From Candidatus Eiseniibacteriota bacterium (lineage in GTDB: Bacteria > Eisenbacteria > RBG-16-71-46), in NCBI GenBank assembly GCA_031370785.1, contig JANMQY010000079.1, positions 19,901 through 83,900 on the forward strand: 64,000 nt of DNA, read 5' to 3'. This document shows, piece after piece, positions 13,958 to 36,771 of this stretch (positions within the stretch are counted from its first letter, which is position 1; each line of letters opens with the position of its first letter). The position numbers were made by a program, and so were the translations under genes. The notes beneath the pieces were generated by a model, which was not told the origin of the DNA, did no database searches, and saw nothing but the letters and a program-made list of their open reading frames with translations.

Positions 13958-13978
13958 GCGCTGGCGAAAGAGGCGCGC

Positions 13979-16718: not shown

Positions 16719-16723
16719 ACTCG

Positions 16724-20555: not shown

Positions 20556-20702
20556 CTGGTCCGGCCCTCCAAGGGGGACGCGTCCGCGGCCACCGAGTTT
20601 ACGCGTCTCGGGCGCCTTTGGCCATCACACTGCTCGACGTCCGCGCATCGTCGCCGTCCCGCCTGCCCCGGCGTCGTGCGCAGTTTCTCCGCACTTTTAT
20701 CG

Positions 20703-20742
20703 GGCGTTCACGCGTCGTAACCGCCGACGTGTTCTCTTTCGG
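20703..20742 (+). promoter_or_regulatory. phased triple direct repeat, Pho-box candidate B
   Basis: GGCGTTCACGCGTCGTAACCGCCGACGTGTTCTCTTTCGG, with CGT-initiated units at 20705, 20716 and 20728 (spacing 11 and 12 nt). Its architecture is near-identical to the element at 26791-26830 read on the minus strand. Confidence 0.45.
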
Positions 20743-20958
20743 CTCGTCGCTCCCGACCCTTGAGCTTCCCCGCCACTCGAATCCGGGAGTTCGCCCCGCG
20801 CGGCACCGCACGCATCGCGCGCTCTGCGCGCGCGCACGCCGACTGTTCGGAAGCTGGGAGGGCGCGGTCCGCGCGGCGGGACTCGACTACGCCGAGCTGG
20901 TCACGATTGCACGGCAGCGCGCCTCGCGCGCCCGCCGGCTCACCTGGCGTCGCGCGCG

Positions 20959-21651: not shown

Positions 21652-21683
21652 GTGTGTTCTCCGCCCCGGTTTGGCGCCGGCGC

Positions 21684-22547: not shown

Positions 22548-22549
22548 CC

Positions 22550-23434
22550 CTAGTTTCTCCCGGGCAATCGCCGCAAGGTCAGTCGCAGGATGCCGGACAT
22601 CAACGTGACGAGCAGGAGCAGCACGAGCGCTCCGGTCCAGGCCTGGCGGTTCCAGTCCTCGTAGGGCGCCTTGGCGTAATCGTAGATCATGACGGGAAGC
22701 GAGGCGATTGGCTGGTCCAGGCGAATCGACCAGAACCGGTTGCCGAGCGCGGTGAACAGCAGCGGCGCGGTCTCCCCGGCGGCGCGCGACAGCGCGAGCA
22801 GGCTCGCGGTCACGATGCCGGCCGAGGCCGACGGGATCACCACCGACTGGATCGCGCGCCAGCGCGGCGCTCCCAGCGCGAGCGCGGCCTCGGTGTAGGA
22901 GCGCGGCACGAGGCGCACCACTTCCTCGGTCGAGCGCACGATGGTCGGCAGCATCAGGATGGCGAGCGCGACGCCGCCAGCCAGGGCCGAGAACCGGCCC
23001 ATCGGCAGCACCACCAGCCCGTAGGCCGCGACCCCGACCACGATCGACGGCACGCCGGCGAGAACATCGGCGGTGTAGCGCACGATCATTCCCAGTCGGC
23101 CTCCGCCATACGTCGCGAGCCACACGCCGGCGCCGACTCCGACCGGCACCGCGATCAGGCCGCCGAGCCCGGTCACGATCAGCGTCCCGATGATCGCGTT
23201 GGCCATGCCGCCGCCCGGCTCTCCGACCGGCTTGGGCAGATTGAAGAAGAACGAAGGGCGAAGCGCAGGCAGACCCTTCGCGAGCAGGTGCCACACGATG
23301 AAGGCGAGCGGCAGCACCACCAGCGCGGCCGCGATCCAGCACGCCGCAAGGAGCGAGGCGTTGTGAATCAGCCGCAACCTCGAGGGGCCGCGCCCGGCCG
23401 AACGGGCCAGCGCGTCAGGCCGTGCCGGCGACAT
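22550..23434 (-). CDS. pstA: phosphate ABC transporter permease PstA
   Basis: 294 aa, polytopic, with an EAA-loop region ([22 protein letters not shown]). Position is canonical between pstC and pstB. Confidence 0.9.
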
Positions 23435-24410
23435 CGCGTCTTCCTCCGGTCGCGAGGTGGACGAGCAGGCGCGCCCCGGCGTTGACCACCAGCGTCAGCG
23501 CGAACAGCACCAGCGCCACCTCGATCAGCGCGGAAAGGTAGAGAGCGCCGGTCGCCTCGGTGAACTCGTTGGCGATCACGCTCGCCATGGTCGAGCCGGG
23601 CGCGAGCAACGAGGCCGAGATGCGATTGGTGTTCCCGATCACCATGGTCACCGCCATGGTTTCCCCGAGCGCGCGCCCGAGCGCAAGGATCACCGCGCCG
23701 AGGATTCCCGGCCTCGCGGCGTCGACCGCGACCGCGATCGCCTCGGCGCGGGTCGAGCCGAGCGCCAGCGCCGCTTCACGCAGCGAACGCGGCGTCGCGA
23801 GCAGGATCTCTCGCGAGATCGAGACCACCGTCGGCAGCACCATGATGGCGAGCACGATGCCCGCGTTGAGAACGCCGATGCCGAAGGGGGGACCCGTGAA
23901 CAGCGGCATGAACCCGAGGTGCTGGATCAGCCACGGCTCGACGGCGGTGCGCAGGACGGGCGCGAGCACGAACAGTCCCCACAGCCCGTACACGATGCTC
24001 GGGATCGAGGCGAGCAGATCGACCACGAACGCGACGGCTTCGCCGACCCGGGGCGGCGCCAGCTCGGAGAGGAACACCGCGGCCCCGATCCCGAGCGGCA
24101 CCGCGAGCAGCATCGCGATCGCCGAGGTCACCAGCGTGCCGTACACGTAGGGCAGCGCGCCGAACTTCTCCGCGACCGGATCCCAGGTGGTGGAGGTGAA
24201 GAACTGCCACCCGAAGGTGCGCAACGAGAGCTGCGCGCCCCGAGTGGACTCGAACACGATCAGCGCGGCGACCAGGAACACGAACAGGGCGCACGCGCCG
24301 AGCAGCCCCTGGTATGCGGTGTCGGCATGTGCCCAGGGCTTCGCCCGTGCGATCGGTCGGGTGAGCACCGGCAGATGGCTCGCGCCGGCCGTTCCGGTTC
24401 GGGAGGTCAC
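23415..24410 (-). CDS. pstC: phosphate ABC transporter permease PstC
   Basis: 331 aa, with FFTSTTWDPVAEKFGALPYVYGTLVTS and REAALALGSTRAEAI. It overlaps pstA by 20 nt. Confidence 0.9.
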   Translation of the reverse strand: MTSRTGTAGASHLPVLTRPIARAKPWAHADTAYQGLLGACALFVFLVAALIVFESTRGAQLSLRTFGWQFFTSTTWDPVAEKFGALPYVYGTLVTSAIAMLLAVPLGIGAAVFLSELAPPRVGEAVAFVVDLLASIPSIVYGLWGLFVLAPVLRTAVEPWLIQHLGFMPLFTGPPFGIGVLNAGIVLAIMVLPTVVSISREILLATPRSLREAALALGSTRAEAIAVAVDAARPGILGAVILALGRALGETMAVTMVIGNTNRISASLLAPGSTMASVIANEFTEATGALYLSALIEVALVLFALTLVVNAGARLLVHLATGGRRDVAGTA

Positions 24411-24426
24411 CGGCTGTCCCGGGCGC

Positions 24427-25488
24427 TCACTGCAGCACCGGCCTGCCGTTCGCGGTCAGCTTGAGCAGGTTCGCATCGTTGATCTTGATCACCGCCTCGG
24501 GCAGCCGGGCGTAGTCCAGCGCCTCGGCCATGCTCTGTCCGTCGTGCATCGCCCAGCGGATGAATTCCGCGAGCGTGCGCGCTTTCTTCCCGTCCTTCAG
24601 GTCCCTGTAGACGAGCAGATAGGTGAGCCCCGCGATGGGGTAGGCGTCCGGGCTCGCCGAGTTCACGATTGGTGCGCGTACGTCCTTCGCAAGCGCCGCC
24701 TCCGCGCCGGCGACGGCCGCGGTGGTCGAAGCCAGCGAGGGTTCGACGAACTTGCCCGCCTTGTTGCGCAGCGCCGCGATCGGAAGCTGGTTCTGCTTCG
24801 CATACGCCAGCTCCACGTAGCCGATCGCGCCCGGAGATTGCCGTATCAGGCCGGCCACGCCCTCGTTGCCCTTGCCGCCGACACCGGCCGGCCAGCTCAC
24901 CGAGGTGTTGGCGCCGACCAGCTCCTTCCACTCGGTGCTGACCGACGAGAGGTAGGTGGTGAAGATGTTCGTCGTGCCGCTGCCATCCGACCGGTGCACA
25001 GGCAGGATCGGCACCGGAGGCAGCGCGACGCCGGGGTTGGCGGCGGCGATCGCCTTGTCGTTCCACACCGTGATCCGGCCGAGAGAGATTCCGGTCAGGG
25101 CCTCGGGCGTGAGCTGGAGCCGGCCCTTGAAGTCGGGAAGGTTGTAGGCGATCGCGACCGCCCCGGCGACGGTCGGGAAATGGATGATCGGGCGCGGCAG
25201 CTCGCGGAGCCGATCGTCCGAGAGCGCCGCGTCGCTGGCCCCGAAATCGACGGTGCCGGCCTTCACCTGCTGGATGCCCGCGCCGCTGCCGATCGACTGA
25301 TAGTTGATGCCCACCCCGGTCTTCTTCTGGTACGTGTCGAACCACTTCGAGTAGATGGGATAGGGAAAGGTCGCGCCTGCCCCGGTCAGATTCTGCGCCC
25401 GCGCACAACTGGCCGGACCGAGCGCCGCCAGCGCCAGGCCGAGGAGCGCCGCGACTCCGGTCACCTGTCGCTTCAATGTGCTTCTCAT
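24427..25488 (-). CDS. pstS: phosphate-binding protein PstS
   Basis: The start is trimmed to ATG 25488 (MRSTLKRQVTGVAALLGLALAALGPASCARA signal peptide). Contains GAGATFPYPIYSKWFDTYQKKTGVGINYQSIGSGAGI and FGASDAALS. Confidence 0.93.
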   Translation of the reverse strand: MRSTLKRQVTGVAALLGLALAALGPASCARAQNLTGAGATFPYPIYSKWFDTYQKKTGVGINYQSIGSGAGIQQVKAGTVDFGASDAALSDDRLRELPRPIIHFPTVAGAVAIAYNLPDFKGRLQLTPEALTGISLGRITVWNDKAIAAANPGVALPPVPILPVHRSDGSGTTNIFTTYLSSVSTEWKELVGANTSVSWPAGVGGKGNEGVAGLIRQSPGAIGYVELAYAKQNQLPIAALRNKAGKFVEPSLASTTAAVAGAEAALAKDVRAPIVNSASPDAYPIAGLTYLLVYRDLKDGKKARTLAEFIRWAMHDGQSMAEALDYARLPEAVIKINDANLLKLTANGRPVLQ

Positions 25489-25511
25489 GGGTCTGGCCCT
25501 TTCGTTGAGTT

Positions 25512-26717
25512 TCACGACTGCGGCCTGCTGAACCGGTAGAACAGAGTGATGCGGGCCTGCAGGTCGTGGTGAGCGGGGGCGACCGCCGTGCCCTTCGCCA
25601 GATACTGAGTGGCCTCGACGTTGGGAATGACGTGGACGTCCTTGAACGGCTGCCAGTCGACACCCGCGATCCACAGCTGCGAATCCACGCGATTGCTCGC
25701 GCGACGATTTGGAATCCACTGGTCGAAGCGCGCCAGCAGCACGACCGTGGAGCTTAACGTCGCGCGGGCAAAACACGAGTACCCGCGCGGCTCCTCGGTC
25801 GGGGCCGGACCCTTTCGATTCAGCCGGTCGAGCGCCTCGAAACCGATCGCGACGCGCCTGAATTCATATCCCGCGAAGATCTTCCAGGTGGTCTGGTCGT
25901 TGTTGATCGCCGCGCTCTCGGGCTGGACCGGCTGCGCTCGGTCGAGGTTCACCCGCACGCCCTGATAGTCCGCGTACGGCTCGATGCGCAGAGCGCCCAC
26001 ACGCAGCGGCAGCGCGAAGTAGAGCTTCTTGAACCGATCGGTCTCCGGTTTCTGGCCGGTGCCATCGCCGATCGCGGCGATGTAGCCGACATGGTGATCC
26101 GGGTCGGCGAATCCCTTGAGCTCGAGGGCGAGGTCGGTCGCATTGCCGATCGAGCGGAAGTCGCCAATCGTCTTCTCGACCGCGCGGTATTGCCAGAAAT
26201 CCTCGGAGTTCTCCCACGTTGGAGTGACGATCATGCCGACGTACAGATCGGTGCGCGGCAGGACGCCCTTGGCCTGAAGGTAGGCCGAGCGCAGGGCGAC
26301 TCCGATCTTTCCGTCCGAGGTCAGGGACTTGCTGTCGGCTTCGAGTCGAAAGCGCGTGGCGAGGCGGACCGAAAGATCGTTGTCGAGCTGGAAGTAGACG
26401 CGGCGGATCTGAACGCCGTTCAATCCCTGGGTGATCGGTTTCTTTCCGTCGATGTTGGTCTGACCCAGGTCCGCGCCGTTCACGTCGTAGACGTGGCTGG
26501 GGTCACCGGAGAGATTGCCGTAGAGGTCACCGAACACCAGGCCGCTGATCCGTCCGCGCGGGAAGTCGGGGGGGGTCTGCGGAACCACGATCGCGATCGG
26601 GATCGGCGGCGGGGTCGAGGCGCTATCCGGCGAGGTCGAGCCGGTCGCGGACATCTGTGCGGAGCAGGGGACCGCAACGGTCAGCGCTGCGGCAATGAAC
26701 CAGGCGCGTCCTGTCAT
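25512..26717 (-). CDS. outer-membrane porin, putatively phosphate-selective (by context)
   Basis: The start is trimmed to ATG 26717 (AAGGAG RBS). Signal peptide MTGRAWFIAAALTVAVPCSA. About 400 aa with beta-rich composition. It sits directly upstream of pstS in the same orientation, with a Pho-box-like repeat in its promoter region. The family assignment is not verifiable by eye. Confidence 0.55.
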   Translation of the reverse strand: MTGRAWFIAAALTVAVPCSAQMSATGSTSPDSASTPPPIPIAIVVPQTPPDFPRGRISGLVFGDLYGNLSGDPSHVYDVNGADLGQTNIDGKKPITQGLNGVQIRRVYFQLDNDLSVRLATRFRLEADSKSLTSDGKIGVALRSAYLQAKGVLPRTDLYVGMIVTPTWENSEDFWQYRAVEKTIGDFRSIGNATDLALELKGFADPDHHVGYIAAIGDGTGQKPETDRFKKLYFALPLRVGALRIEPYADYQGVRVNLDRAQPVQPESAAINNDQTTWKIFAGYEFRRVAIGFEALDRLNRKGPAPTEEPRGYSCFARATLSSTVVLLARFDQWIPNRRASNRVDSQLWIAGVDWQPFKDVHVIPNVEATQYLAKGTAVAPAHHDLQARITLFYRFSRPQS

Positions 26718-26790
26718 GGCGCTCCTTTCGGGATGGAGTGTCGCTGCAACTGGAGTTTCGAGGGGTTCCACTTCGGCCGCCGCATGTCCC

Positions 26791-26830
26791 GGTAAAAGAA
26801 CACGGCGGGAGTTACGGCAGCGTTACGGCC
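26791..26830 (-). promoter_or_regulatory. phased triple direct repeat, Pho-box candidate A (promoter of porin-pst operon)
   Basis: The minus strand reads GGCCGTAACGCTGCCGTAACTCCCGCCGTGTTCTTTTACC. CGT units start at 26827, 26816 and 26804 (spacing 11 and 12 nt). The element lies 75-115 nt upstream of the porin ATG. Confidence 0.5.
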
Positions 26831-26904
26831 GGATGAAATGCATGGAACGGCCGACAAGGCGCAGGGAATTCCACGGGGAGTCCGTCTGCCAGCGCCTCAG
26901 AGCC

Positions 26905-27246
26905 TCATTCTTCGTCGGTCCGGGCGCGTTCGCGTTTCCGGCGCGCGGCAACCCGCTTGGCGGCGAGGCGCGCCTCGACCGCGGAGCGGCTCGGCCGGGT
27001 CGCGTGACGTGGCTTGGGCTTGTGGGCGCGGCGCTGGATCTCGGCCCACACCCTTTCGAGTGCGGCTTCACGGTTGCGCAGCTGCGAGCGGCTCTCGGTG
27101 GCGATGCGGGTGATTCCGGTCGGGCGATGGCGCACGCGCACGCTCGACTCGGTCTTGTTCTTCTTCTGTCCGCCCGGCCCCGACGATTTGTAGGCAACGA
27201 CATCGCAGTCGCGGGCCAGGCGCTCGAGATGTTCCGGCAACGCCAT
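26905..27246 (-). CDS. arfB: peptidyl-tRNA hydrolase ArfB-like (RF-1 domain, GGQ motif)
   Basis: 113 aa. Contains SSGPGGQKKNKTESSVRVRH, SRSQLRNREAALERV and a basic C-terminal tail RPSRSAVEARLAAKRVAARRKRERAR. Confidence 0.7.
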   Translation of the reverse strand: MALPEHLERLARDCDVVAYKSSGPGGQKKNKTESSVRVRHRPTGITRIATESRSQLRNREAALERVWAEIQRRAHKPKPRHATRPSRSAVEARLAAKRVAARRKRERARTDEE

Positions 27247-27555
27247 GGCCGCATGCTAGCGCAGGAGCGGCCGCGTTTCGCTGCCGTTTGGTGAGCGTTT
27301 ACTTCCCGCCATGCCCGGCGAATGACCTATTGCATCGAAGGTGCGAACTCGGGGATCATCGTGCGGTCGCCAAGCCGGCCCGGGTCTCACACCTCGGACC
27401 GGAGGCATGGCACGCGCGGGACGCGCGCCATCAGCCCCACAGGAAATCGAAGCGCGTCATCGTGCCATCGCAACCTGCCACGCCGGCGCGCCTCTTGGAG
27501 ATCCACCATCCCCCGTTCCTCCTGCCCCGCATCGGGCCCGGCATTCGCACGCCGC

Positions 27556-29772
27556 GTGGCCCGGATCTTCGCGATTGCCGTTTTTGGAGCACTCACGCTG
27601 TTCGGTAGCCCACGCGCGGGTAATCGCATCTGGACGGGCGTCGCGCCGCGGGCCCGGAGCATCGAGGCAATCGCGCGCGATCCTCTGAACCCTTCTCGCA
27701 TGTGGGTCGCCTCGTTCGGAGCCGGCGTGTACCGGTCGCTGGACGGGGGGGTGACCTGGAAGGCATATCGCTCGGGCCTGATCAACACCTTCGTGCGCTG
27801 TCTCGCAGTTCAGCCCCTGCATCCGGATTCGGTTCTGTGCGGCACTAACGACGGCGTGTTCCTCAGCGTGGACGGTGGCGTGACGTGGAAGGCTCTGCTC
27901 TCGACGACTCGATCGGTGCGCTCGCTCGCCATTCATCCGGTGCGGACCGGCGTCGTCTATGCGGCGCTGTACGGCGGCGGCGTCTACAAGTCGCTGAACG
28001 CGGGCGCGAGCTGGAGCGCGATCAACCTGGGCCTGGTCAACACCAACGTGCGTGACATCGCGATCTATCCGACGCGGCCCGAGACCCTGCTGGCTGCGAC
28101 CGGGACCGGCGGCGGAATTCATCGGAGCTTCAACGGTGGCTTGAGCTGGGCCCAGGTGCCGGACACTACGGCAACTCGGGGCGCGGCGGAGCAGGTGCAG
28201 TTCGACGCGCTCGACCCCTCGCGAATCTATGTCGCCGAGCTGGACCGCGGCGTGCTGCGCAGCACCGACGGCGGCACCAACTGGGGGCGCATCAACGGTG
28301 GCCTGTCGTCGTTCCGGGGACGATCGCTGGCGGTGGTGGACACGCTGCGCTGGTTCGGCACCGACGGCGCCGGCGTTTTCGTGACCTCGCTCAACGATAC
28401 GATGTGGCACCCCGTCGACATCGGGCCGACCGGCCGGGTCGTGGATGCGCTGTGGTCCTCGGCCGCGGAACCGTCCACCGCCCTCGCGGGTACTGACGGA
28501 GACGGGATGTTCCTCACTTCCGACCGCGGAGCGTCGTGGATCCCGGTAGACGGCGGCCTGATGTCCACTCAGGCGTTTTCACTCGCGGTGCGCCCATCCA
28601 CTCATGTCGTCTATGCCGGCACCGGCTTCGGCGATCAGTTCTGGCGGAGCGCGGACGTCGGCGCGTCGTGGACGCGCGCCACGCGATTGGTCACGAACAA
28701 TTCGGAACATGGTGTCGCACCGGATCCGCTGCTGGCCGGTCGAGTGTATCTGTCGGCGTATGGCTCGGGGGTGTACCGCAGTGATGACGATGGCGCGACC
28801 TGGCTGAATCCCGACAGCCTGAACGCAACGCTCACCAACCGGTTCGTCCGCCCGCTGCTGGTCTGGCCGGGCCAGAGCGAGCACCTGTTCGTCGGCACCG
28901 GCATCGGACCATTCGAGAGCACGGACGGAGGCGCGCAATGGGCTTCACGCGTCGGGAACCTGCCGGCGGGCTTCGGCGTGCACTCAATGGCGCTGGTGCC
29001 GGGGGTGCCGGCCACGTTGTATGTGGGGAACGACAGCGCCGGCGTCTACCGCTCGAACGATGGCGGCACGACCTGGAATCAAAAATCGGCCGGGCTGCTC
29101 TCGCCATTCGTTCGCGCCATCGTAGTGGACGCCGTCGATCCGCTCCGGGTATACGTCGCGACCGACTCGGGAGTATTTCGCAGCGTCGATGGGGGTAACG
29201 CGTGGGTCGCGGCGCGCGCCGGGCTCCCCGCGGGGCTGGTGGTGCGGGCGCTGGTGCAGGATCCGGCGCACGGAGCGCTATTCTGCGGCGTCTATGGAGG
29301 CGGAGTGTTCGAGAGCGTCGATGGTGCCGGCACCTGGCTGCCGGTCTTCGGGCAGCAGGGGCTCAGTGATCTGCACGTACGCGCGCTTGCGGTGGACACC
29401 GGCCAGCGCGCCCTCTATGCCGGCACCGAGAACGGTGTCGCCTCGGTGACCTTCTACGACGCCCTCGACGTGCCGCGGCCGGTTGCGGGATCCAGGCTTA
29501 GCCTTTCGGCCTCGCCCAACCCTTCGTCCGGGTCCGGACCCGAGCTGCGCTTCGCAATGGCACGTGCCGGCTCCGCGCAGCTTTCGATCTACGACACGGC
29601 CGGGCGCCGGGTGCGGGTGCTCGCCGACGCGTGGCTCGAAGCCGGGGAGCACGAGGCGCGCTGGGACGGCCGGGACGCCCGCGGCTTTCCCGCGCCGGCC
29701 GGTCTCTATTTCGCGCGGCTGGTCGTACCCGACGGAGTCCGTGTCGTGCGTCTCGCGCGCCTCATGAGGTGA
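27556..29772 (+). CDS. secreted BNR/Asp-box repeat protein with FlgD-Ig/T9SS-like C-terminal domain
   Basis: GTG 27556 gives the signal peptide (V)ARIFAIAVFGALTLFGSPRA. There are at least 12 SxDxGxTW-type repeats (SLDGGVTWKA, SVDGGVTWKAL, STDGGTNWGRI, SNDGGTTWNQK, and others). The C-terminus is LSASPNPSSGSGPELRFAMARAGSAQLSIYDTAGRRVRVL...GLYFARL. The ORF-track start 27322 adds a non-protein-like extension. Confidence 0.75.
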   Translation: MARIFAIAVFGALTLFGSPRAGNRIWTGVAPRARSIEAIARDPLNPSRMWVASFGAGVYRSLDGGVTWKAYRSGLINTFVRCLAVQPLHPDSVLCGTNDGVFLSVDGGVTWKALLSTTRSVRSLAIHPVRTGVVYAALYGGGVYKSLNAGASWSAINLGLVNTNVRDIAIYPTRPETLLAATGTGGGIHRSFNGGLSWAQVPDTTATRGAAEQVQFDALDPSRIYVAELDRGVLRSTDGGTNWGRINGGLSSFRGRSLAVVDTLRWFGTDGAGVFVTSLNDTMWHPVDIGPTGRVVDALWSSAAEPSTALAGTDGDGMFLTSDRGASWIPVDGGLMSTQAFSLAVRPSTHVVYAGTGFGDQFWRSADVGASWTRATRLVTNNSEHGVAPDPLLAGRVYLSAYGSGVYRSDDDGATWLNPDSLNATLTNRFVRPLLVWPGQSEHLFVGTGIGPFESTDGGAQWASRVGNLPAGFGVHSMALVPGVPATLYVGNDSAGVYRSNDGGTTWNQKSAGLLSPFVRAIVVDAVDPLRVYVATDSGVFRSVDGGNAWVAARAGLPAGLVVRALVQDPAHGALFCGVYGGGVFESVDGAGTWLPVFGQQGLSDLHVRALAVDTGQRALYAGTENGVASVTFYDALDVPRPVAGSRLSLSASPNPSSGSGPELRFAMARAGSAQLSIYDTAGRRVRVLADAWLEAGEHEARWDGRDARGFPAPAGLYFARLVVPDGVRVVRLARLMR

Positions 29773-30956
29773 TGCGGGGCATGCTCGTTCCGGGATTTCT
29801 GACGCTCGGCCTCGTGGCGTACGGCCTGTGGGAGTCGCGCTCCCACGCGGCCATGCTGTCCCGCATTCCGACCCGCGTCCACGTCAACGGCACGCGCGGA
29901 AAGTCCTCGGTGACCCGGCTCATCGCCGGTGGATTGCGCATGGGTGGCGTGAGGACTTTCGCCAAGACCACCGGCACCATGGCGCGCATGATTCGTCCCG
30001 ACGGCGCAGAGGTGGACGTGTATCGAGTCGGCCGGCCCAACATCATCGAGCAGACACGCATCATACGCCGCGCGGTGGAAGCGGACACCCACGCGCTGGT
30101 CGTCGAGTGCATGGCGGTCTCACCCGAGCTACAACCGCTCTCCGAGCTGCGGCTGATCCGCAGCACGGTCGGCGTCATCACTAATTGCCGCGCCGACCAC
30201 CTTGACGTGATGGGACCGACCACCGACGACGTCGCGCGGGCGCTGGCGCAGACCTGCCCGCTGCGTGGACACCTGTTCACCGCGGAGCGCGATCGCGCGT
30301 GGATCCTCGAATCGGTCGCGCGCGATCGCGGCACGGATCTGCACGTGATCGATTCTGCGGACGTCACGCCCGCCGAGATGGCGTCTTTCTCGTACATCGA
30401 GCATGCAGAGAACGTCGCGCTGGCCCTTGCGGTGTGCACGCACCTCGGGGTGTCGCGCGAGGCGGCGCTGGCGGGCATGCAGGTGGCGACTCCCGACCCG
30501 GGCGTGCTTCGCCGGTTCGTGGTTCACGTCGGGGGCAGAACGGTCGAATTCGTGAATGCGTTTGCCGCCAATGACCCGGACTCCACCCTGCTCATCTGGG
30601 AGCGCCTCGGACTCGAAGTGCCCCGCGCCGGAATCCAGCGAATCGTTCTGGCCCACTGCCGCCCCGATCGGATACAGCGCTCGGGCCAGATCGCGCAACT
30701 GGTCGCCACCCGACTGAAGTCGGATCACGTCGTGCTCTGCGGAGAGGATACCGATCTGGTGGCGTTTCACGCGGTCAAGGCGGGACTGCCGCGCGAGCGA
30801 ATCAGCAATCTCGGAGGGCGCGGCGCGGAAGCGGTGTATGAACATGTTCTCGATCTCGTGAAGGAGAAGGGCATCGTGGTCGGAATCGGCAATATCGTGG
30901 GACTGGGGGAGGAAATCGTGCTCCATTTCAGAAACCGGATGGTGCGTGGTGGTTGA
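29772..30956 (+). CDS. pgsB: poly-gamma-glutamate synthase PgsB/CapB
   Basis: MRGMLVPGFLTLGLVAYGLWE (N-terminal TM), RVHVNGTRGKSSVTRLIAGGLR (Mur-ligase-type P-loop) and VVECMAVSPELQ. The ATG overlaps the upstream stop (TGATG 29770-29774). Confidence 0.85.
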   Translation: MRGMLVPGFLTLGLVAYGLWESRSHAAMLSRIPTRVHVNGTRGKSSVTRLIAGGLRMGGVRTFAKTTGTMARMIRPDGAEVDVYRVGRPNIIEQTRIIRRAVEADTHALVVECMAVSPELQPLSELRLIRSTVGVITNCRADHLDVMGPTTDDVARALAQTCPLRGHLFTAERDRAWILESVARDRGTDLHVIDSADVTPAEMASFSYIEHAENVALALAVCTHLGVSREAALAGMQVATPDPGVLRRFVVHVGGRTVEFVNAFAANDPDSTLLIWERLGLEVPRAGIQRIVLAHCRPDRIQRSGQIAQLVATRLKSDHVVLCGEDTDLVAFHAVKAGLPRERISNLGGRGAEAVYEHVLDLVKEKGIVVGIGNIVGLGEEIVLHFRNRMVRGG

Positions 30957-31398
30957 ACAGGCGATCGGCCTCGGTCTGGTGATCAGCCTGATCTTCTCGG
31001 AGACTCTCGGACTGGCGGCCGGAGGCATGGTGGTGCCCGGATACCTCGCGCTCACCATCCACGAGCCGCTGCGCATCCTCGGCACCGTGCTGATCGCGCT
31101 GCTCACCTTCGGCGCGGTGAGGTTCCTGTCGCTCTATACGCTCATCTATGGGCGGCGACGCATCGTGGTCGCCGTGCTCATCGGATTCGTATTCGGCGCA
31201 CTGTCGCGCAACCTGCTGTTCTTCCGCTGGCACGAGACTCCCGTCGACATTCGCACCATCGGATACGTCATCCCCGGCCTGATCGCCAACTGGATGGAGC
31301 GCCAGGGCGTGCTACAGACCCTGTGCGTCATGACCACCACCGCGGTTCTGGTGCGCCTGCTGTTGATGCTGATCAACGGCGGAACCCTCATCCGATGA
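30946..31398 (+). CDS. pgsC: poly-gamma-glutamate biosynthesis membrane protein PgsC/CapC
   Basis: 150 aa, polytopic. LIFSETLGLAAGGMVVPGYLAL...YGRRRIVVAVLIG...IGYVIPGLIANWMERQG aligns by eye with Bacillus CapC. GTG start, with an 11-nt overlap with pgsB. Confidence 0.85.
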   Translation: MVVEQAIGLGLVISLIFSETLGLAAGGMVVPGYLALTIHEPLRILGTVLIALLTFGAVRFLSLYTLIYGRRRIVVAVLIGFVFGALSRNLLFFRWHETPVDIRTIGYVIPGLIANWMERQGVLQTLCVMTTTAVLVRLLLMLINGGTLIR

Positions 31399-32522
31399 GT
31401 CTGGCCCGCGCCTCCACTCCCGCCCTCGCCGCGCTTGCGCTGCTGTCGCTCGTCGTCTATGCCGTCGCCGAGCGCTCGGTGACTCCCGTGCACGCCGAGG
31501 CTTATCGCATCAAGCTCGACGCCATGCGCGTGATGCAGCGGGCGGAGCATGCGGTGCTCGAGGCCAAGCGCGCCCGCGGCATCTCGATCGATGCGAAGAA
31601 CGATCCGGTTCCCACCGGACTGATCGGCCCGCAATTCACTTTGATCACCACGGATCGCGGCGCACAGTCCGCCAAGAGTCTTGCCACGCATTCGAGTTTC
31701 GCGGCCGCCGCCGCGCAGATGATGCTGCAGGGCGGGGTTCGTCGGGGGGACCTGGTGGCGGTCGGCGTGACCGGGTCGCTTCCCGGGCTCAACGTCGCGG
31801 TGTTCTCGGCCTGTCGCGCAGTGGGCGCGGAGCCGGTCGTGATCACTTCGGCAGGAGCCTCGATGTTCGGCGCGACCGATCCCGAGATGACCTGGCTCGA
31901 CATGGAGTCGGCGATCGTCGCGCGCGGCCTGTGGCCGGACGGCTTCCGATCGATCGCTGCCTCGCTCGGTGGCGGCGGCGACGCCGGGCGCGGGCTGTCC
32001 CCGACCGGGCGCCAGCTGCTGCGCGATGCCATCGACCGCAATCATGTTCGATTCCTCGATCCACCCACCGTGTTCGAGGCGGTCCGCGAGCGCGTCGCTC
32101 TCTACGACTCGGTGGCCGCCGCCCGGGGCAGGCCGATCCGGATGTACGTCAACGTCGGAGGCGGCGTGGCGAGTCTCGGCGGCGCGCAGAATGGACGGTT
32201 GATCCCGGCCGGCCTCAGTCCGCGCCTCACCACTCGCAACTATCCGAATCGCGGCGTGATCAACGTTCTCGGCGAACGGCGCATTCCCGTGATTCATCTG
32301 CTGCAGGTGGAGAAGCTGGCACGCGAGTTCGAGATCACGGACGCCGCGGGCGAGCCGGTCAAGCCCGGCCGCGGGCTGCTGTTCGTGAAGTATCGCTACA
32401 ACCTCGCGATCGTGGCAGGGGCGGCGGTGCTGGTCCTCTTCGCCAACCTGTTCGTGCTGCGTCACGACATTCGCCAGAAGCTGCTCGGCCAGCCCCATCC
32501 GGAAAGGATTCCGCTCGCATGA
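31395..32522 (+). CDS. bitopic envelope protein in the PgsA position (not CapA-like); possibly 'poly-gamma-glutamate system protein' family
   Basis: About 375 aa. It has an N-terminal TM (ALAALALLSLVVYAV), a large soluble domain and a C-terminal TM (LAIVAGAAVLVLFANLFVL). It lacks the CapA metallophosphatase-like motifs. There are ATGA overlaps with pgsC and with the next gene. The family name is from memory and unverified. Confidence 0.5.
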   Translation: MSLARASTPALAALALLSLVVYAVAERSVTPVHAEAYRIKLDAMRVMQRAEHAVLEAKRARGISIDAKNDPVPTGLIGPQFTLITTDRGAQSAKSLATHSSFAAAAAQMMLQGGVRRGDLVAVGVTGSLPGLNVAVFSACRAVGAEPVVITSAGASMFGATDPEMTWLDMESAIVARGLWPDGFRSIAASLGGGGDAGRGLSPTGRQLLRDAIDRNHVRFLDPPTVFEAVRERVALYDSVAAARGRPIRMYVNVGGGVASLGGAQNGRLIPAGLSPRLTTRNYPNRGVINVLGERRIPVIHLLQVEKLAREFEITDAAGEPVKPGRGLLFVKYRYNLAIVAGAAVLVLFANLFVLRHDIRQKLLGQPHPERIPLA

Positions 32523-33430
32523 AGGCGTCGTACCTGTTCCTGCTCGTGTTGTTGCTCGCATCAGCTCCCGACCCGCGCTCTCCAGGCGTGCAGGCCGCGG
32601 GCTGGGTCACCATCGAGAAGCTGACGGACGCGAAACCGGTTCACGTGCTGGTGCGCGGCCAGGACCGGGTCTACTTCCGGATCACGCCCCAGAGGCCGCT
32701 CAACGTCGCAATCGATGGGCCGGTCCGCGTGCGCGTCGTGACCCGGGTCGAGCTGCGCGGCGCCGGGGACACGATCGCGACCTACAAGGTCCGCGCGGTC
32801 GAGAACGGTCGCGAGCTCGAGATTCTCGACACCGAGAGCTCCGCCGCTTCCGAGACCCGGCTGGCCGACGGCCCGGGTGTGCTCGGCAAGAGCCGGCGCA
32901 TGACGTTCGATGTGCCGGCCGGCCGCCATCGCATCCAGCTCGCGCTCGAAGGCACCGCGTCCGCGCTGGTCAGGCTGCAGCTCTCCCGTGAAAAGATCGG
33001 AGACGAGGCCATGGTCTCGCTCACCCCGACCGAAGCGCCGCGCAGCGTCTCGGTGATCGAGGGCGAGAAGACCGTGCCGTACTACAGCGTGCTCCCCGGC
33101 CAGCCGGTGCGGCTTCGCGTGATCGGACCGACGACGCTCGAGCTCATGACCCGCCTCGATTTCGACGCCACCATGCGCGGGACACAGACCTATCGAGTGC
33201 GGGTGACGGGGCGTGGAAAGGTGCTTCGTGAAGCGGAGTTCAAGACGACGAAGGCCACGACTGCCACTTACGCCAATCTGCCGGATCGCGTGCCTTCGAA
33301 ATTCGACCGCGTGGTCGTTCGTCTGGGAGGGGGCGTGCATGAGCTCGCCATCGAGCTGCTCTCGCCCGTTCGCGGGTCGGCCGAGATCCGCGCGCGCATC
33401 CCGCAACCATCCGTTGGCAACGAGGAATGA
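32519..33430 (+). CDS. secreted protein with internal ~120-aa duplication (hypothetical)
   Basis: Signal peptide MKASYLFLLVLLLASA. Two similar halves: YFRITPQRPLNVAIDGPVRVRVVTRVEL...TYKVRAVENGRE...FDVPAGRHRIQLAL versus YYSVLPGQPVRLRVIGPTTLELMTRLDF...TYRVRVTGRGKV...VRLGGGVHELAIEL. ATGA overlaps at both ends. Confidence 0.6.
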   Translation: MKASYLFLLVLLLASAPDPRSPGVQAAGWVTIEKLTDAKPVHVLVRGQDRVYFRITPQRPLNVAIDGPVRVRVVTRVELRGAGDTIATYKVRAVENGRELEILDTESSAASETRLADGPGVLGKSRRMTFDVPAGRHRIQLALEGTASALVRLQLSREKIGDEAMVSLTPTEAPRSVSVIEGEKTVPYYSVLPGQPVRLRVIGPTTLELMTRLDFDATMRGTQTYRVRVTGRGKVLREAEFKTTKATTATYANLPDRVPSKFDRVVVRLGGGVHELAIELLSPVRGSAEIRARIPQPSVGNEE

Positions 33431-34581
33431 TGGGAAACCCAGAGGTGCGCCGAAACCGCCGTCTCAGGACCGCAGCCACCGCCGTTCTCGCCGCACTCAC
33501 GCTCGGCACGGCCGACGCCGGAGCGGCGCAGAGAGTGAATCTCACACTCGGGCTCGGAGCGATCTACGACACGAACCTGCTGAAGTACTCGGCCGACCAG
33601 CGCACCCTTTTCGAGAGCGGCACTCGGCCCGACCGGTTCTCGATCCATTCGCTGGATGACCTGACGTGGAATCCGTTCGTCGCGCTCGCCTGGGATGCCG
33701 ACGCGGGGCGCGGCCGCCACCACATCCTGCGCCTTAAGAGTGAGGGGGAGTTCCACGATCGCAACCCCACCGCGGACTTCCACTCGATCAGTGCCGGCTG
33801 GCGCGAGACCTGGCGCGGCGGGCGCAGATTCTCGGTGGGATATTACGGACTGCCGCACTACTATCTGCGGCAGCTCGTCGACGAAGACTACGTGACGCCG
33901 TTTCCCGGGCTGGCGCTCCATCGTCGCGCGCAATTCGATCTGCAGATCGCCTCCACGTCGTGGGGCCAGCGCATCGCCCGGAATACCGACACCGAGCTCG
34001 CATACCAGTTCGAAAACCGGCGCTACGTGCCGGACTTTCGCGAGCGAGACTCGAAAACCCACCAGGGCGAGCTGACCTTCGGTTTCACGGGGCTGCCGGA
34101 TCGCGGCTCGATCGATGTTTCGGGAGGGTGGCGGGTGAGCAACGCGAAGGGCGTGGATGGTGACGAAGTTGCGGGCGCCCCTCCCGACGATCAGGACCTG
34201 ACCTATCACGGTCCGATCGCATCGGTGCGCGGTCGTGCCGAGCTCGGGCGAACCGCGCGCTGGCGGGTGATCGGCGATGCCGGCTACCAGTTCGGGAGCC
34301 GCACGTACGATTCGAAGGTGCCTGCCGATCGCTTCCACTTCGGGCGCCGCGATGCGCTCAATGCGGTCGAGTTCGGGCTGCGCGCCCAGTTTCGCCCTCA
34401 CCTGAGCGCCCGCGGATTCTTCCGTCACGAGTCCAACAACGCACACCACGGTGCCAACGTGGCGTCCACGACCGACCTGGGAAGCTACTCGCAGAATCAG
34501 GTCGGCCTGGTCGTGGACTGGTCGGGCGCAATCTGGCGGAGTCAGCGCGCCACGGCCGCCGAGCCGGACACGACGAATTGA
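33427..34581 (+). CDS. outer-membrane beta-barrel-like protein (hypothetical)
   Basis: Signal peptide RRLRTAATAVLAALTLGTADAGA. 384 aa, rich in alternating aromatic/Gly/Arg strands (FSVGYYGL, ELAYQFENRRY, GELTFGFTG, GDAGYQFGSRTY, GLVVDWSG). Coupled on both sides. Confidence 0.55.
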   Translation: MMGNPEVRRNRRLRTAATAVLAALTLGTADAGAAQRVNLTLGLGAIYDTNLLKYSADQRTLFESGTRPDRFSIHSLDDLTWNPFVALAWDADAGRGRHHILRLKSEGEFHDRNPTADFHSISAGWRETWRGGRRFSVGYYGLPHYYLRQLVDEDYVTPFPGLALHRRAQFDLQIASTSWGQRIARNTDTELAYQFENRRYVPDFRERDSKTHQGELTFGFTGLPDRGSIDVSGGWRVSNAKGVDGDEVAGAPPDDQDLTYHGPIASVRGRAELGRTARWRVIGDAGYQFGSRTYDSKVPADRFHFGRRDALNAVEFGLRAQFRPHLSARGFFRHESNNAHHGANVASTTDLGSYSQNQVGLVVDWSGAIWRSQRATAAEPDTTN

Positions 34582-35267
34582 TGCCTGCTCCTCGCCTCCG
34601 CCCGGGTCTGTTGCCGACATTGATCGCGGCCGCAGGGATCGCCCTGTTCGTAACGGGCTGCCATACCGCGCGCATCCTCGGGCCGCCGCCGCCGTTGCGC
34701 GCCGCGTCGGCGTCCAGCTATGCGGTGGATGTGGAGTTTGCGGAGCCGCTCGATCGCGCGAGCGCCGAAGACCCATCGCACTATGCGCTGGTCGCCGTCT
34801 CCGGTGGCGCCGCCGCGGTCATCCAGAGCGCGACCCTGGTGGACACGCTCTACGGCCGAGTCGTACAGCTCCTGATCCCGGACTGGCTCACCACCAATCC
34901 CGATACCACGGAGTTCGACCTCACCACGAGCGGCGTGATCGCGCTGGACGGGAGATCGACCGGCTCACGCACGGTGCGCTTCGCTACCGGGCTCTCCTAT
35001 CGCGCGCCGGTGCGCGCGCTGCTGGGCGCGCATTGCAGCTCGTGTCACGGGGCTTCACGCGCCGACGGAAGCTATCGCACCGACAGCGAGGCGGAGCTGG
35101 TGGGCGGCGGCAGAAATGCGACGCCCAATCTCATCGCCGGCGATCCCAACAGCCTGCTGCTGGTGAAGTGCCGGCCGGGCAACTCGATGTTCAATCGTGG
35201 CAACCTCTCCTTCCTCGACTTCGAGATCCTTCTCAACTGGGTCGTGAGTTACTCGGCGCGTTCGTAG
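34581..35267 (+). CDS. lipoprotein with Ig-like N-domain and CxxCH (planctomycete-cytochrome-c-like) C-domain
   Basis: Lipobox LFVTGC. SYAVDVEFAEPLDRASAEDPSHYALV resembles an SbsA-type Ig domain. LLGAHCSSCHGASRADGSYRTDSEAELVGGGRNATPNLIAGDPNSLLLVK...LSFLDFEILLNWV resembles a PSCyt1-type domain. The start could be TTG 34578 or ATG 34581. Confidence 0.6.
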   Translation: MPAPRLRPGLLPTLIAAAGIALFVTGCHTARILGPPPPLRAASASSYAVDVEFAEPLDRASAEDPSHYALVAVSGGAAAVIQSATLVDTLYGRVVQLLIPDWLTTNPDTTEFDLTTSGVIALDGRSTGSRTVRFATGLSYRAPVRALLGAHCSSCHGASRADGSYRTDSEAELVGGGRNATPNLIAGDPNSLLLVKCRPGNSMFNRGNLSFLDFEILLNWVVSYSARS

Positions 35268-35370
35268 CGCTTCTGCGCCGCCGTACCCACTTGTGGCCGC
35301 TTCGCGCCCGCCGTTAGACTGCCGCCGCTAAGGCCGCAGGCCCTGTCGTCACGTCCATTCCGGAGGTCTC

Positions 35371-36771
35371 ATGCTCACCGCATCCCGCGTGGCGCCGATC
35401 ATCGTGCTCGCGCTCGCGGGCGCGCTGCTCTCGGCTCCGGATGCCGTGGCGAAGAAGCGCCCCGCGCCCCGTCCGGCCGCCCCGGTGACGGCATCCTCGG
35501 CGCTCGCGCTCCGCGTGCAGCGCGTCACGCTCGGCAACGGACTCACTGTGCTGCTTCACGAGGACCACAGCGTGCCGACGGTCGCGTTCTGGCAGTGGTA
35601 TCGCGTCGGCTCGCGCAACGAGCGGCCGGGCATCACCGGGATCTCGCACTTCTTCGAACACATGATGTTCAACGGATCGAAGAACGTCCCGCCCAAGGAG
35701 TACGACCGGATCCTCGAATCGAACGGCGGCTACTCGGACGCGTTCACCGACTACGACATGACCGCGTACTTCGAGGAGATCGCATCGGACCGGCTGGGAG
35801 TCGTGCTGCGCCTCGACTCCGACCGCATGGCGGCGCTCTCGCTCCTGCCCGAGCAGCTCAAGAGCGAGATCGACGTGGTGAAGGAGGAGCGGCGGTTCCG
35901 CGTGGACGACGACATCCGGGGCATGCTCGACGAGCCGCTGTGGGCGACCGCGTTCGAGGCCTCGCCCTATCACTGGCCGGTGATCGGCTGGATGGGCGAC
36001 CTCAACCGGATCACGCGCGAAGACATGGTCGAGTACTTCCGGATTCACTACGCGCCGGACAACTGCATTCTCGCGCTGGTCGGGGATTTCGATTCGAAGG
36101 CCGCGCTCGACAGCATTCGGACGTACTTTGGCTCGATTCCGCGCCAGCCGGCGCCGCCCGAGCCGGTGGACTCGGAGCCCGAGCAGAGAGGCGCTCGCCA
36201 CCTCGAGGTGCACTATCCGGCGCAGAACGTCACGTTCCTCGCGGGTTACAAGGCGCCGGCCGCGAAGAGCGCCGATGCGCCGGTGCTCGATTTACTGCGC
36301 TCGATTCTCGGCGACGGCGAGTCGTCCCGGCTGCACCAGGCGCTGGTGTACGAGGGGCAGATGGCGATCGAGGCCTCCTGCGCGTACCAGGCCCGCATTG
36401 CTCCTGGCCTCATGGAATTCACCGTCGAGCTGAAGCCGGGCCGCAGCGCACAGGAAGGGTTGAAGGCGCTCGACTCGGTGTTGACGCACCTGTCGGACCA
36501 GGGCCCGAGCGAGCGCGAGCTCCAGAAGGCGCGCAATCAGCTCGAGGCGGCGGTGGTGCGCTCGCTCAAGACCAACAACGGCGTGGGCCAGCAGCTCGGC
36601 TACTTCGAGCACGTGTTCGGGGACTACCGCACACTGTTCCAGACCGTGGAGCGCTATCGCACGGTCAGCGCGGAGGACTGCCGGCGCGTGGCGAAGCAGG
36701 TATTCGATGCGAAGCGGCGCACGGTGGCGGTGCTCGTGCCCGACAAGGGCGCCGAGGATGCCGCACCATGA
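35371..36771 (+). CDS. M16 family zinc peptidase (active subunit)
   Basis: Signal peptide, then the HxxEH inverted zinc motif in GISHFFEHMMFNGS. Confidence 0.88.
   Translation: MLTASRVAPIIVLALAGALLSAPDAVAKKRPAPRPAAPVTASSALALRVQRVTLGNGLTVLLHEDHSVPTVAFWQWYRVGSRNERPGITGISHFFEHMMFNGSKNVPPKEYDRILESNGGYSDAFTDYDMTAYFEEIASDRLGVVLRLDSDRMAALSLLPEQLKSEIDVVKEERRFRVDDDIRGMLDEPLWATAFEASPYHWPVIGWMGDLNRITREDMVEYFRIHYAPDNCILALVGDFDSKAALDSIRTYFGSIPRQPAPPEPVDSEPEQRGARHLEVHYPAQNVTFLAGYKAPAAKSADAPVLDLLRSILGDGESSRLHQALVYEGQMAIEASCAYQARIAPGLMEFTVELKPGRSAQEGLKALDSVLTHLSDQGPSERELQKARNQLEAAVVRSLKTNNGVGQQLGYFEHVFGDYRTLFQTVERYRTVSAEDCRRVAKQVFDAKRRTVAVLVPDKGAEDAAP

Follow-up and report, generated by a model that had tools for sequence, protein, structure and literature searches.

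A seven-gene run on the forward strand (27556-35267) of the window, the whole 64 kb stretch of DNA that was analysed, from an uncultured bacterium that is probably a member of Candidatus Eisenbacteria, probably encodes both a synthase for poly-gamma-glutamate (PGA) and a dedicated apparatus that would export or anchor the polymer across the envelope of a diderm. The locus appears to be a variant of a known system; this functional reading is drawn from sequences and structure models. The genes are as follows.

g1, 27556..29772, + strand: secreted beta-propeller with BNR/Asp-box repeats (Sortilin-Vps10-like) and a C-terminal FlgD-Ig / T9SS-tail-like domain.
pgsB, 29772..30956, + strand: catalytic subunit of the PGA synthase; an amide ligase of the Mur-ligase type, anchored in the membrane by its N-terminus.
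pgsC, 30946..31398, + strand: polytopic membrane subunit of the synthase.
g4, 31395..32522, + strand: bitopic TIGR04332 'poly-gamma-glutamate system protein'.
g5, 32519..33430, + strand: secreted 303-aa protein predicted to form two homologous jelly-roll (CBM-like) beta-sandwich domains.
g6, 33427..34581, + strand: 384-aa protein predicted to be an outer-membrane beta-barrel of 14 strands, whose extracellular loops are long and conserved and whose lumen is charged.
g7, 34581..35267, + strand: lipoprotein whose C-terminal part carries a PSCyt1-like mono-haem cytochrome-c motif (CSSCH).

Six overlaps tie these genes together, as originally predicted, and each junction can be read in the sequence. 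The g1 stop and the pgsB ATG share one base within TGATG (29770-29774). The pgsB stop TGA (30954-30956) lies inside pgsC, giving an 11-nt overlap if pgsC starts at GTG 30946 and an 8-nt overlap if it starts at GTG 30949; homologous loci have the 8-nt form, and the later start yields a PgsC of 149 aa, as in homologues. ATGA joins pgsC to g4 (31395-31398), g4 to g5 (32519-32522) and g5 to g6 (33427-33430), while g6 and g7 meet at TGATG (34579-34583), with TTG 34578 as an alternative g7 start. GC3 is 0.80-0.87 across all seven frames.

Judged by profile scores, the identities of PgsB and PgsC are unambiguous, and the original prediction had recognised both. PgsB scores 431.5 bits against TIGR04012 (cutoff 222.7), matches PF08245 (Mur_ligase_M) and carries the P-loop motif NGTRGKSSVTRL. 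PgsC scores 127.7 bits against TIGR04011 (cutoff 96.45) and 123 bits against PF14102, with four hydrophobic segments and both expected motifs, VVPGYL and VIPGLIANW.

The order pgsB-pgsC-g4-g5-g6 is kept in 31 species-level genomes, MAGs mostly labelled Candidatus Eisenbacteria, and in metagenome contigs besides; the count takes in related loci with enough sequence, and every such locus has the core. Gene overlaps of 4 or 8 nt are conserved in homologous loci. The core also recurs in distant lineages that range from 38 to 71% GC. One locus of 38% GC (L040) runs g1-like, pgsB, pgsC, g4, g5, g6 and then a PF05908 PGA hydrolase gene, a Delongbacteria contig (L042) runs pgsB, pgsC, g4, g5, g6-like, and two contigs of 44-47% GC (L036, L038) carry g5 followed by g6. 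In nearly all loci g6 lies either 3' of g5 or 5' of pgsB. The barrel gene stands upstream of pgsB, with its overlap with pgsB retained, in L020 and L028, and about 5 kb upstream in L039; near two distant loci (L041, L043) it was not found. Across more than 30 independent loci and distant lineages, the gene order is confirmed to be conserved beyond chance. The flanks of the loci hold nothing else that is conserved, including any ABC or other inner-membrane importer. Three separate loci have a PF05908 gamma-PGA hydrolase gene as a neighbour: L014, L040 and L002, the last of which is also represented by a near-duplicate contig, L003. These neighbours support PGA as the product; L040 also contains a GGT fragment.

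The outermost genes behave differently from the rest. In 12 related loci that also have g7, a g1 homologue immediately precedes pgsB, as it does in two further loci (L004, L007) that are cut off on the downstream side. A g1-like gene occupies the same position in the distant L040; its 1139-aa product scores 317 bits and matches Por_Secre_tail weakly. The g7 gene is found only in loci with g1 and is absent from the five-gene loci and from all distant lineages sampled. The earlier view of a single seven-gene unit was therefore abandoned: since g7 is not core and co-occurs only with g1, the operon is better described, from the distribution of its genes, as a five-gene core, pgsB-pgsC-g4-g5-g6, plus an optional accessory pair, g1 and g7, which occur together or are both missing. 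The start of g1 is uncertain, as GTG 27556 falls right before a signal-peptide-like helix at the hydrophobic N-terminus and the frame is open back to ATG 27322. Its product matches PF15902 (101 bits), PF02012 and, at residues 670-718, PF13860 (34.9 bits); the match to TIGR04183 Por_Secre_tail (16.1 bits) is below the cutoff of 23. The proposal that g7 is a lipoprotein with CxxCH agrees with conservation: the lipobox (VTGC) Cys and CxxCH are invariant in 17/17 aligned homologues, conservation extends to YRTD and P..SM, and the PF07635 score of 20.8 bits falls just below the cutoff of 22.

Classical partners of the synthase were sought throughout the window. Pfam scans of the seven proteins and about 50 further ORFs across the whole 64 kb found no match to PF09587 (PGA_cap/CapA), PF01019 (GGT/CapD) or PF05908 (PGA hydrolase), in line with the original prediction for PgsA/CapA and CapD/GGT, and a tblastn search of the window with a PF05908 protein was also negative. 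PgsE is too small for a model search; inside the operon, the overlaps leave no space for such a small ORF. OmpA-type barrel proteins and an AsmA-family protein are encoded elsewhere in the window and were counted as a sign of two membranes.

The third core gene, g4, had been described as bitopic and uncharacterised. The first part stands, because hydropathy predicts two helices (residues 6-24 and 337-355) bounding a basic domain of about 310 aa that is probably periplasmic. The second does not, since g4 scores 270.6 bits against the curated family TIGR04332 (cutoff 100). Among 524 homologues, the best 120 are 67-100% identical, and the motifs TTDRG, GxTGSxPG, SSMFGAxDP, GGGxDxGRGLSPxG and NVGGGxASLGG are strongly conserved. 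That 31395..32522 might be an ordinary CapA/PgsA was considered and ruled out: PF09587 does not match, and a comparison with a PGA_cap protein by hhalign yields a probability of 0.1%. On this sequence evidence, g4 fills the place of PgsA with no homology to it.

Secretion and internal duplication of g5, both predicted originally, are borne out. The protein begins with a signal helix of the cleavable type and has neither lipobox nor barrel, suggesting that it is periplasmic and not surface-exposed, and hhalign shows that one half is homologous to the other, at a probability of 98.4% (E 5e-15). The AlphaFold2 model (pLDDT 89.8) resembles tandem CBM22 (4xup, E 1e-6), CBM51 and BcsB (E 4e-4 to 9e-4) in Foldseek, while the sequence has no match in Pfam, NCBIfam or PDB. 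A profile search matched 786 representative clusters. Three of these, from diverged lineages, are fused to TIGR04332, with a three-helix topology predicted to place both domains in the periplasm. The g4-g5 fusions, and a barrel gene that has relocated yet stayed in the operon, argue for a functional unit. Both g4 (mean net charge +12) and g5 (+7, mean pI 9.6) are basic, as expected for polyanion binding, and g5 is proposed to be a periplasmic polymer-binding or guiding subunit.

A signal helix and a confident AlphaFold2 model with 14 strands (pLDDT 91, pTM 0.85) likewise uphold g6 as a beta-barrel, which is proposed to be an outer-membrane channel or anchor. Its sequence has no Pfam or PDB match, although PF13505 weakly matches 6/64 homologues. 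Foldseek relates g6 to OmpG, CymA, FadL and PgaA at a generic barrel level only; structural matches of g5 and g6 generally remain at the level of the fold (TM 0.2-0.6). Extracellular loop 1, which is conserved, and loop 5, which is rich in Asp, are distinctive. By a crude strand analysis, the lumen has 11 conserved basic and 8 conserved acidic residues; a pore for a polyanion would be expected to be clearly positive, and the mixed charge counts against a channel. Pfam and NCBIfam contain no model for g5 or g6, and no description of either was found in the literature.

These features suggest a route for the polymer. In the PgsB and PgsC families, an ATP-dependent amide ligase and its polytopic partner polymerise glutamate. 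By that precedent, PgsB at the cytoplasmic face and PgsC would make the chain and thread it through the inner membrane. The two-helix anchor g4, replacing PgsA, would then receive the chain through the basic domain of about 310 residues that it is predicted to expose to the periplasm; g5, which is joined to g4 in some lineages and would otherwise be free in the periplasm, would bind and guide the polyanion, and the g6 barrel would release it or keep it at the surface. The four proteins then regarded as unknowns had been predicted to be syntenic with pgsBC and to form an inner-to-outer-membrane module; synteny and predicted location support both ideas for g4, g5 and g6, and g7 drops out of each. 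If this is correct, g4, g5 and g6 look like the missing exit route for PGA in two-membrane bacteria. Release of PGA into the culture supernatant has been reported for E. coli expressing Bacillus pgsBCA with no dedicated outer-membrane protein (PMC7490850), and a dedicated channel may therefore not be strictly needed.

Other readings of g5 and g6 must be weighed against this one. The two might give rise to a capsule by anchoring PGA, or the end of its chain, at the outer membrane, with the chain leaving by another way. Such an arrangement would stand in for anchoring by CapD, which attaches the capsule of Bacillus anthracis to peptidoglycan, and would have a parallel in Wzi, a barrel lectin that retains the E. 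coli K30 capsule. The absence of CapD/GGT matches in the window, the polymer-binding look of the CBM-like folds, and a barrel whose extracellular loops are long and conserved and whose lumen is not clearly electropositive all suit it. Nevertheless, the predicted periplasmic location of g5 and its tethering to the inner membrane in the fusions speak more for a guide in the periplasm than for an anchor at the surface, and the anchoring scheme seems unlikely. Uptake or recycling, in which a porin and a periplasmic binder import glutamate or PGA fragments for the synthase or for nutrition, would accord with the substrate channels among the nearest folds of g6 and with the hydrolase genes beside some loci. 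It is very unlikely, given that no inner-membrane importer is conserved alongside and that an assembly line would better explain both the g5-g4 fusion and the strict coupling of translation to pgsBC.

PgsBC and the TIGR04332 protein might instead make another gamma-linked product or decorate an envelope component, with g5 and g6 as target or handlers; something of this kind has been suspected for Francisella capBCA. Francisella capBCA is needed for virulence, yet its product has not been identified, it is not the recognised capsule, and no PGA capsule has been linked to capBCA (PMC4688374). The very strong conservation of g4 and its enzyme-like, glycine-rich motifs could also mean catalysis rather than passive transport. 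PgsB and PgsC score well above their equivalog cutoffs, however, and hydrolase genes lie beside three independent loci, one of which has a GGT fragment as well, making a different product improbable. That the downstream genes are unrelated neighbours merely co-transcribed with pgsBC is hardly credible in view of synteny across lineages of 38-71% GC, the moved but retained barrel gene, fusion of g4 and g5 in three lineages, and flanks otherwise devoid of conserved genes. Dedicated export or anchoring of PGA remains the preferred account.

Comparison with known systems places the locus among several precedents. The g6 model shares strand number and barrel shape with the 14-stranded monomeric channels OmpG, CymA and FadL (target-normalised TM 0.55-0.62), but identity is 6-12% and its first and Asp-rich fifth loops are distinctive. 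Operons for cellulose (BcsA/B/C), PNAG (PgaABCD) and alginate (Alg8/44/K/E) likewise combine a polymerase-translocase of the inner membrane, a periplasmic polymer binder and a barrel of the outer membrane, and weak fold matches connect g5 to BcsB and g6 to the PgaA barrel (4y25). Here the putative product is a polyamide, GT2 synthase, c-di-GMP receptor and TPR scaffold are lacking, and the barrel has 14 strands against 16-18; the resemblance is one of analogy, with no sequence homology.

Bacillus PgsBCA(E) and B. anthracis CapBCADE are closer. Curated equivalog models indicate orthologous PgsB and PgsC, and the order likewise starts pgsB-pgsC, with a third gene for a protein that is anchored in the membrane and has a domain outside the cytoplasm; in E. 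coli, PgsA is oriented towards the periplasm (PMC7490850). The present operon differs in lacking PgsA/CapA, PgsE and CapD, in having the unrelated TIGR04332 protein as its third gene product, and in g5 and g6, which are without counterpart in monoderms. Francisella tularensis, a diderm, has capB, capC and a 'CapA' (FTT0805-0807) annotated 'poly-gamma-glutamate system protein', the TIGR04332 product name, a link made by product name only (PMC5362203). That locus is described as having three genes and no periplasmic or outer-membrane partner, in contrast to the one presented here. Because its 'CapA' carries this product name, a diderm locus that has PgsBC but no PgsA is not without precedent.

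Seven plus-strand ORFs, read directly in the sequence, fill 27556-35267 in a window of about 68% GC, and the GC3 of all seven operon frames lies at 0.80-0.87. The core consists of pgsB, pgsC, g4, g5 and g6, flanked by an accessory pair (g1 and g7).

Genes of the operon
27556-29772, +, g1
29772-30956, +, pgsB
30946-31398, +, pgsC
31395-32522, +, g4
32519-33430, +, g5
33427-34581, +, g6
34581-35267, +, g7

Junctions between the operon genes
29770-29774, +, g1/pgsB, TGATG common to both genes
30954-30956, +, stop codon of pgsB at the pgsB/pgsC junction, an overlap of 11 nt with GTG at 30946 and of 8 nt with GTG at 30949
31395, 32519 and 33427, +, ATGA overlaps of pgsC/g4, g4/g5 and g5/g6
34579-34583, +, g6/g7, TGATG common to both genes

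Each of the six overlaps was read in the sequence exactly as originally described, and the pgsB/pgsC overlap takes the 8-nt form in homologous loci. Because all six junctions overlap, there is no space between the operon genes for a small ORF of the PgsE/CapE type (~50-60 aa). In a scan of 26800-35600, nothing resembled a promoter, and sites resembling terminators were fewer than in shuffled sequences. The sole match of an Rfam scan of 26500-35700 is at chance level, so the operon has no riboswitch upstream of it. Two minus-strand ORFs antisense to g4 and g5 (31146-32606 and 32561-33463; GC3 0.70-0.73), chosen by a simple GC3 caller, are high-GC artefacts; homology supports the plus strand, so g4 and g5 are the real genes.

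The two synthase proteins are recognisable, as had been claimed from their motifs, which were found, and both exceed the cutoffs of curated models. PgsB scores 431.5 bits against TIGR04012 (cutoff 222.7) over nearly the full length of the profile (positions 5-379 of 380), matches PF08245 and carries the Mur-ligase P-loop NGTRGKSS. PgsC scores 127.7 bits against TIGR04011 (cutoff 96.45) and 123 bits against PF14102 (CapC), and its four hydrophobic segments describe a small polytopic membrane protein. A Pfam scan of the seven operon proteins (E<=0.01) and ~50 other ORFs spanning the whole window (mostly E<=1e-4, some E<=0.01) found no metallophosphatase-fold PgsA/CapA (PF09587, PGA_cap) and no CapD/gamma-glutamyltranspeptidase (PF01019), in agreement with the original observation, and no PF05908 hydrolase. 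In E. coli, PgsB sits on the cytoplasmic side, whereas PgsA is in the periplasm (PMC7490850).

The product of g4, which lies directly 3' of pgsC in the window and in all related loci, had been described as uncharacterised. It belongs instead to the NCBIfam family TIGR04332, "poly-gamma-glutamate system protein" (270.6 bits, cutoff 100; profile positions 3-300 of 307). TIGR04332 is an already known family. To judge from the product name, which Francisella tularensis capA shares (PMC5362203), it seems to correspond to the "CapA" encoded by capBCA loci in Gram-negative bacteria. The g4 family is basic (mean net charge +12) and very highly conserved: its alignment columns average 76% identity, and its motifs are rich in glycine. 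Hydrophobic helices occupy residues 6-24 and 337-355 of g4. The possibility that 31395-32522 encodes an ordinary or diverged CapA/PgsA was checked and ruled out: the protein has no PF09587 match, and hhalign gives a probability of 0.1% against the PGA_cap protein of L041, a homologous locus. The L041 protein (328-3378, minus strand; 1016 aa, PKD and PGA_cap domains) is a divergent neighbour of pgsB-pgsC-g4-g5, so CapA-type and TIGR04332-type proteins can co-occur in one locus. A PDB sequence-profile search returned no solved-structure relative of g4; its only apparent matches fell on the His/T7 expression tag carried by unrelated entries. The g4 motif ASLGGGGDxGRG weakly resembles a thrombin-site/T7-tag leader, and tag sequences contaminate PDB sequence searches.

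In the AlphaFold2 model of g5 (pLDDT 89.8), two beta-sandwich domains come after a signal helix. The internal duplication originally proposed for this protein is borne out by the homology of its two halves (hhalign 98.4%, E 5e-15). Foldseek relates the model to tandem carbohydrate-binding modules (CBM22, CBM51) and, more weakly, to BcsB, the periplasmic cellulose-synthase subunit; a PDB sequence-profile search gave no real match. Mature g5 is basic, with a mean pI of 9.6. Searched against 1.84 billion representative proteins, its profile recovers 786 clusters (at 50% identity) with an E<=1e-3 threshold, of which 391 reach E<=1e-10; most share only 20-32% identity with the g5 of the window. Among representative proteins, P0308, P0404 and P0450 (672-693 aa), from three diverged lineages, are fusions of TIGR04332 with g5, and two homologous loci encode such fusions.

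Genes fusing TIGR04332 (g4) with g5
L039, 10001-12052
L043, 4890-6971

The fusion proteins keep both g4 helices, and the former g5 signal peptide becomes a third membrane helix, an arrangement that would leave both domains periplasmic. These natural fusions are good evidence that g4 and g5 act together, and they point to physical contact between the two.

Structure prediction identifies g6 as an outer-membrane beta-barrel protein, giving substance to its earlier description as a beta-barrel-like protein with a signal peptide. The AlphaFold2 model (pLDDT 91, pTM 0.85) has a signal helix and 14 strands whose faces alternate between polar and hydrophobic, with short periplasmic turns (2-5 residues) and long external loops. 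Foldseek returned 207 matches at E<=0.001, and all 50 of the 50 listed are outer-membrane barrels, including OmpG, CymA, FadL and PgaA, to which the similarity is generic only. PF13505 matches weakly and in some g6 homologues only, and no real match emerged from a PDB sequence-profile search. Relatives from other lineages end in an aromatic C-terminal residue. A crude count of lumen-facing positions (11 conserved basic versus 8 conserved acidic) does not support an electropositive pore; the lumen is charged, not clearly positive.

Homologues of g6, g5 and g4 fall into 64, 196 and 524 clusters, respectively, from metagenomes and MAGs, and most of the few named ones are Candidatus Eisenbacteria. 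A scan with the g5 alignment, taking one genome per species, gave 31 loci, about two-thirds labelled Candidatus Eisenbacteria. When all seven proteins were searched by tblastn against 35 loci, the five-gene core was found wherever the contig was long enough, and the most distant g6 homologues have pgsB-pgsC-g4-g5-g6 with identical overlaps in their contexts. Synteny with pgsBC, set as a check for g4, g5, g6 and g7 alike, stands for the first three; g7 is not part of the core and is missing together with g1 from six loci with flanks on both sides. The two accessories are jointly present in 13 loci, the window included, with no discordant case. Nothing else in the flanks of related loci is conserved beyond the cluster genes. 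In two loci (L020 and L028), no barrel gene follows g5; instead, a diverged relative of g6, at 22-25% identity, is encoded upstream of pgsB, with which it overlaps. Scanning metagenomes with a narrow alignment of distant g5 homologues yielded just three contigs, all short.

Gene content of distant loci
L036 and L038, GC 44-47%: g5, then a g6-like gene
L039, GC 69%: pgsB, pgsC and the g4::g5 fusion, with a g6-like gene ~5 kb upstream
L040, GC 38%: g1-like gene (317 bits, weak Por_Secre_tail match), pgsB, pgsC, g4, g5, g6-like gene, PF05908 hydrolase, GGT fragment
L041, GC 65%: pgsBC, with g4 and g5 unfused; no barrel found nearby
L042 (Delongbacteria contig), GC 71%: pgsB, pgsC, g4, g5 and a g6-like gene (73.8 bits, widened model)
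L043, GC 70%: pgsBC, with g4::g5 fused; no barrel found nearby

Genes for gamma-PGA hydrolase (PF05908, phage PghP family) directly beside the cluster
L002, 11159-11773
L003 (a near-duplicate contig of L002), 5565-6179
L014, 4098-4676
L040, 10067-10702

Because contexts from distant lineages carry the core genes, the core is old and widespread rather than the quirk of one lineage. A near-identical cluster also occurs in several MAGs whose labels read Acidobacteriota, Dormiibacterota, Hyphomicrobiales, Chloroflexota or Omnitrophota. The cluster proteins of these MAGs are as close to those of the window as the Eisenbacteria ones are, which could reflect mis-binning, mislabelling or recent transfer.

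The accessory g1 encodes a propeller of the BNR/Sortilin type, and the FlgD-Ig domain at its C-terminus looks similar to the tail of type IX secretion substrates. Residues 670-718 match PF13860 (FlgD_ig, related to the T9SS tail) at 34.9 bits (cutoff 27), the score against TIGR04183 (T9SS C-terminal sorting) is 16.1 bits, below the cutoff of 23, and the distant homologue in L040 matches PF18962 weakly. A match to NF045728 ("F510_1955 glycosylhydrolase"), a model of 246 positions, clears the cutoff only when six repeat matches are added together, and is treated as a generic BNR-propeller signal, not a functional assignment. In g7, the lipobox Cys, an invariant CxxCH and a downstream Met (P..SM) are conserved across 17 homologues, and the protein scores 20.8 bits against PF07635 (PSCyt1), just under the gathering cutoff of 22.

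The remainder of the window encodes OmpA-type barrel and AsmA-family proteins, which indicates that the organism has a diderm envelope with an outer membrane. Two tandem OmpA-family genes (47557-49041 and the minus-strand ORF 49289-52084, whose domain matches lie in its 3' part, at ~49.4-50.8 kb) combine an N-terminal OMP beta-barrel with thrombospondin type 3 repeats, and the AsmA-family gene occupies 53028-55610. The region shortly before the operon, 13259-26771, is a phosphate-regulon neighbourhood (a PhoB/PhoR-like pair of response regulator and histidine kinase, Ppx/GppA, PhoU and PstA/PstC/PstS) in which no pstB was identified. Within these coordinates, at 16658-18116, two adjacent ORFs each match thymidylate kinase (PF02223). 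The neighbourhood also includes a 419-aa signal-peptide protein of porin-like appearance without a Pfam match (25515-26771). An ArfB-like gene (RF-1 domain) follows at 26908-27246, and the same porin-like and ArfB-like genes lie upstream of the cluster in L004. Consecutive minus-strand genes at 3-7623 are gyrA (partial), gyrB, dnaN and dnaA, an arrangement that probably places the window beside the chromosomal replication origin. DnaA-box-like 9-mers (5942, 6020, 7536 and 9454) are no more numerous than expected by chance, their number being reached by 13 of 100 shuffles, and the ORFs of 7700-9600 all lack a Pfam match. A minus-strand gene at 40538-41479 joins a plastocyanin/azurin-type copper-binding domain and a lamin-tail domain in one protein.

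Comparative genomics and structure prediction, the basis of the proposal, suggest that the operon probably encodes an apparatus that exports or anchors poly-gamma-glutamate (PGA). An assembly line is the most economical reading. PgsBC would make the chain and move it across the membrane, both of which are established for Bacillus; g4 would take the place of PgsA at the periplasmic face, g5 would bind the polyanion in the periplasm, and g6 would let the chain through the outer membrane or attach it there. Lesser weight is given to three other readings. The apparatus might serve in anchoring only, with attachment as the sole part played at the outer membrane, or it might work in uptake. The PgsBC-type enzymes might also make a different product, as is suspected for Francisella capBCA, with which no PGA capsule is associated (PMC4688374). 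Within the assembly line, we propose more tentatively, and with slightly less than even confidence, that g4, g5 and g6 form an undescribed, dedicated trans-envelope conduit for "synthase-dependent" secretion of a non-sugar anionic polypeptide. Such a conduit, widespread in Eisenbacteria, Delongbacteria and other diderms to judge from the 786 g5 clusters, might be the missing outer-membrane export route for PGA.

PGA is a capsule and virulence material as well as an industrial biopolymer, and the PgsBCA model of its synthesis derives from the single-membrane Bacillus. We know of no explanation so far for the third gene of diderm capBC-type loci, such as Francisella CapA. PGA loci in diderms are themselves already known, capBC-type loci being common in diderm phyla (PMC5542703), and a 2024 review still gives no route for PGA export across the outer membrane (PMC10897055). 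No account of g5, of g6 or of a path for PGA through the outer membrane turned up in the literature searched, and Pfam and NCBIfam offer no model for either family. The locus provides concrete candidate parts for the steps in the periplasm and at the outer membrane, making an open question on PGA export directly testable. It could also help in engineering Gram-negative hosts to produce PGA and in taking a fresh look at the capBCA loci of pathogens.

Among known systems, the CapsuleFinder model for PGA is without an outer-membrane component. The Bcs, Pga and Alg polysaccharide systems have a similar layout but no homologous parts in this operon. Whereas Bcs, Pga, Alg and Pel combine a synthase of the GT2 family with a periplasmic scaffold that contains TPRs and a porin of 16-18 strands, the Pfam scan found neither a glycosyltransferase nor a TPR domain in the operon, and the predicted g6 barrel has 14 strands. 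By analogy, then, the operon would work like the synthase-dependent exopolysaccharide systems while not being a member of them.
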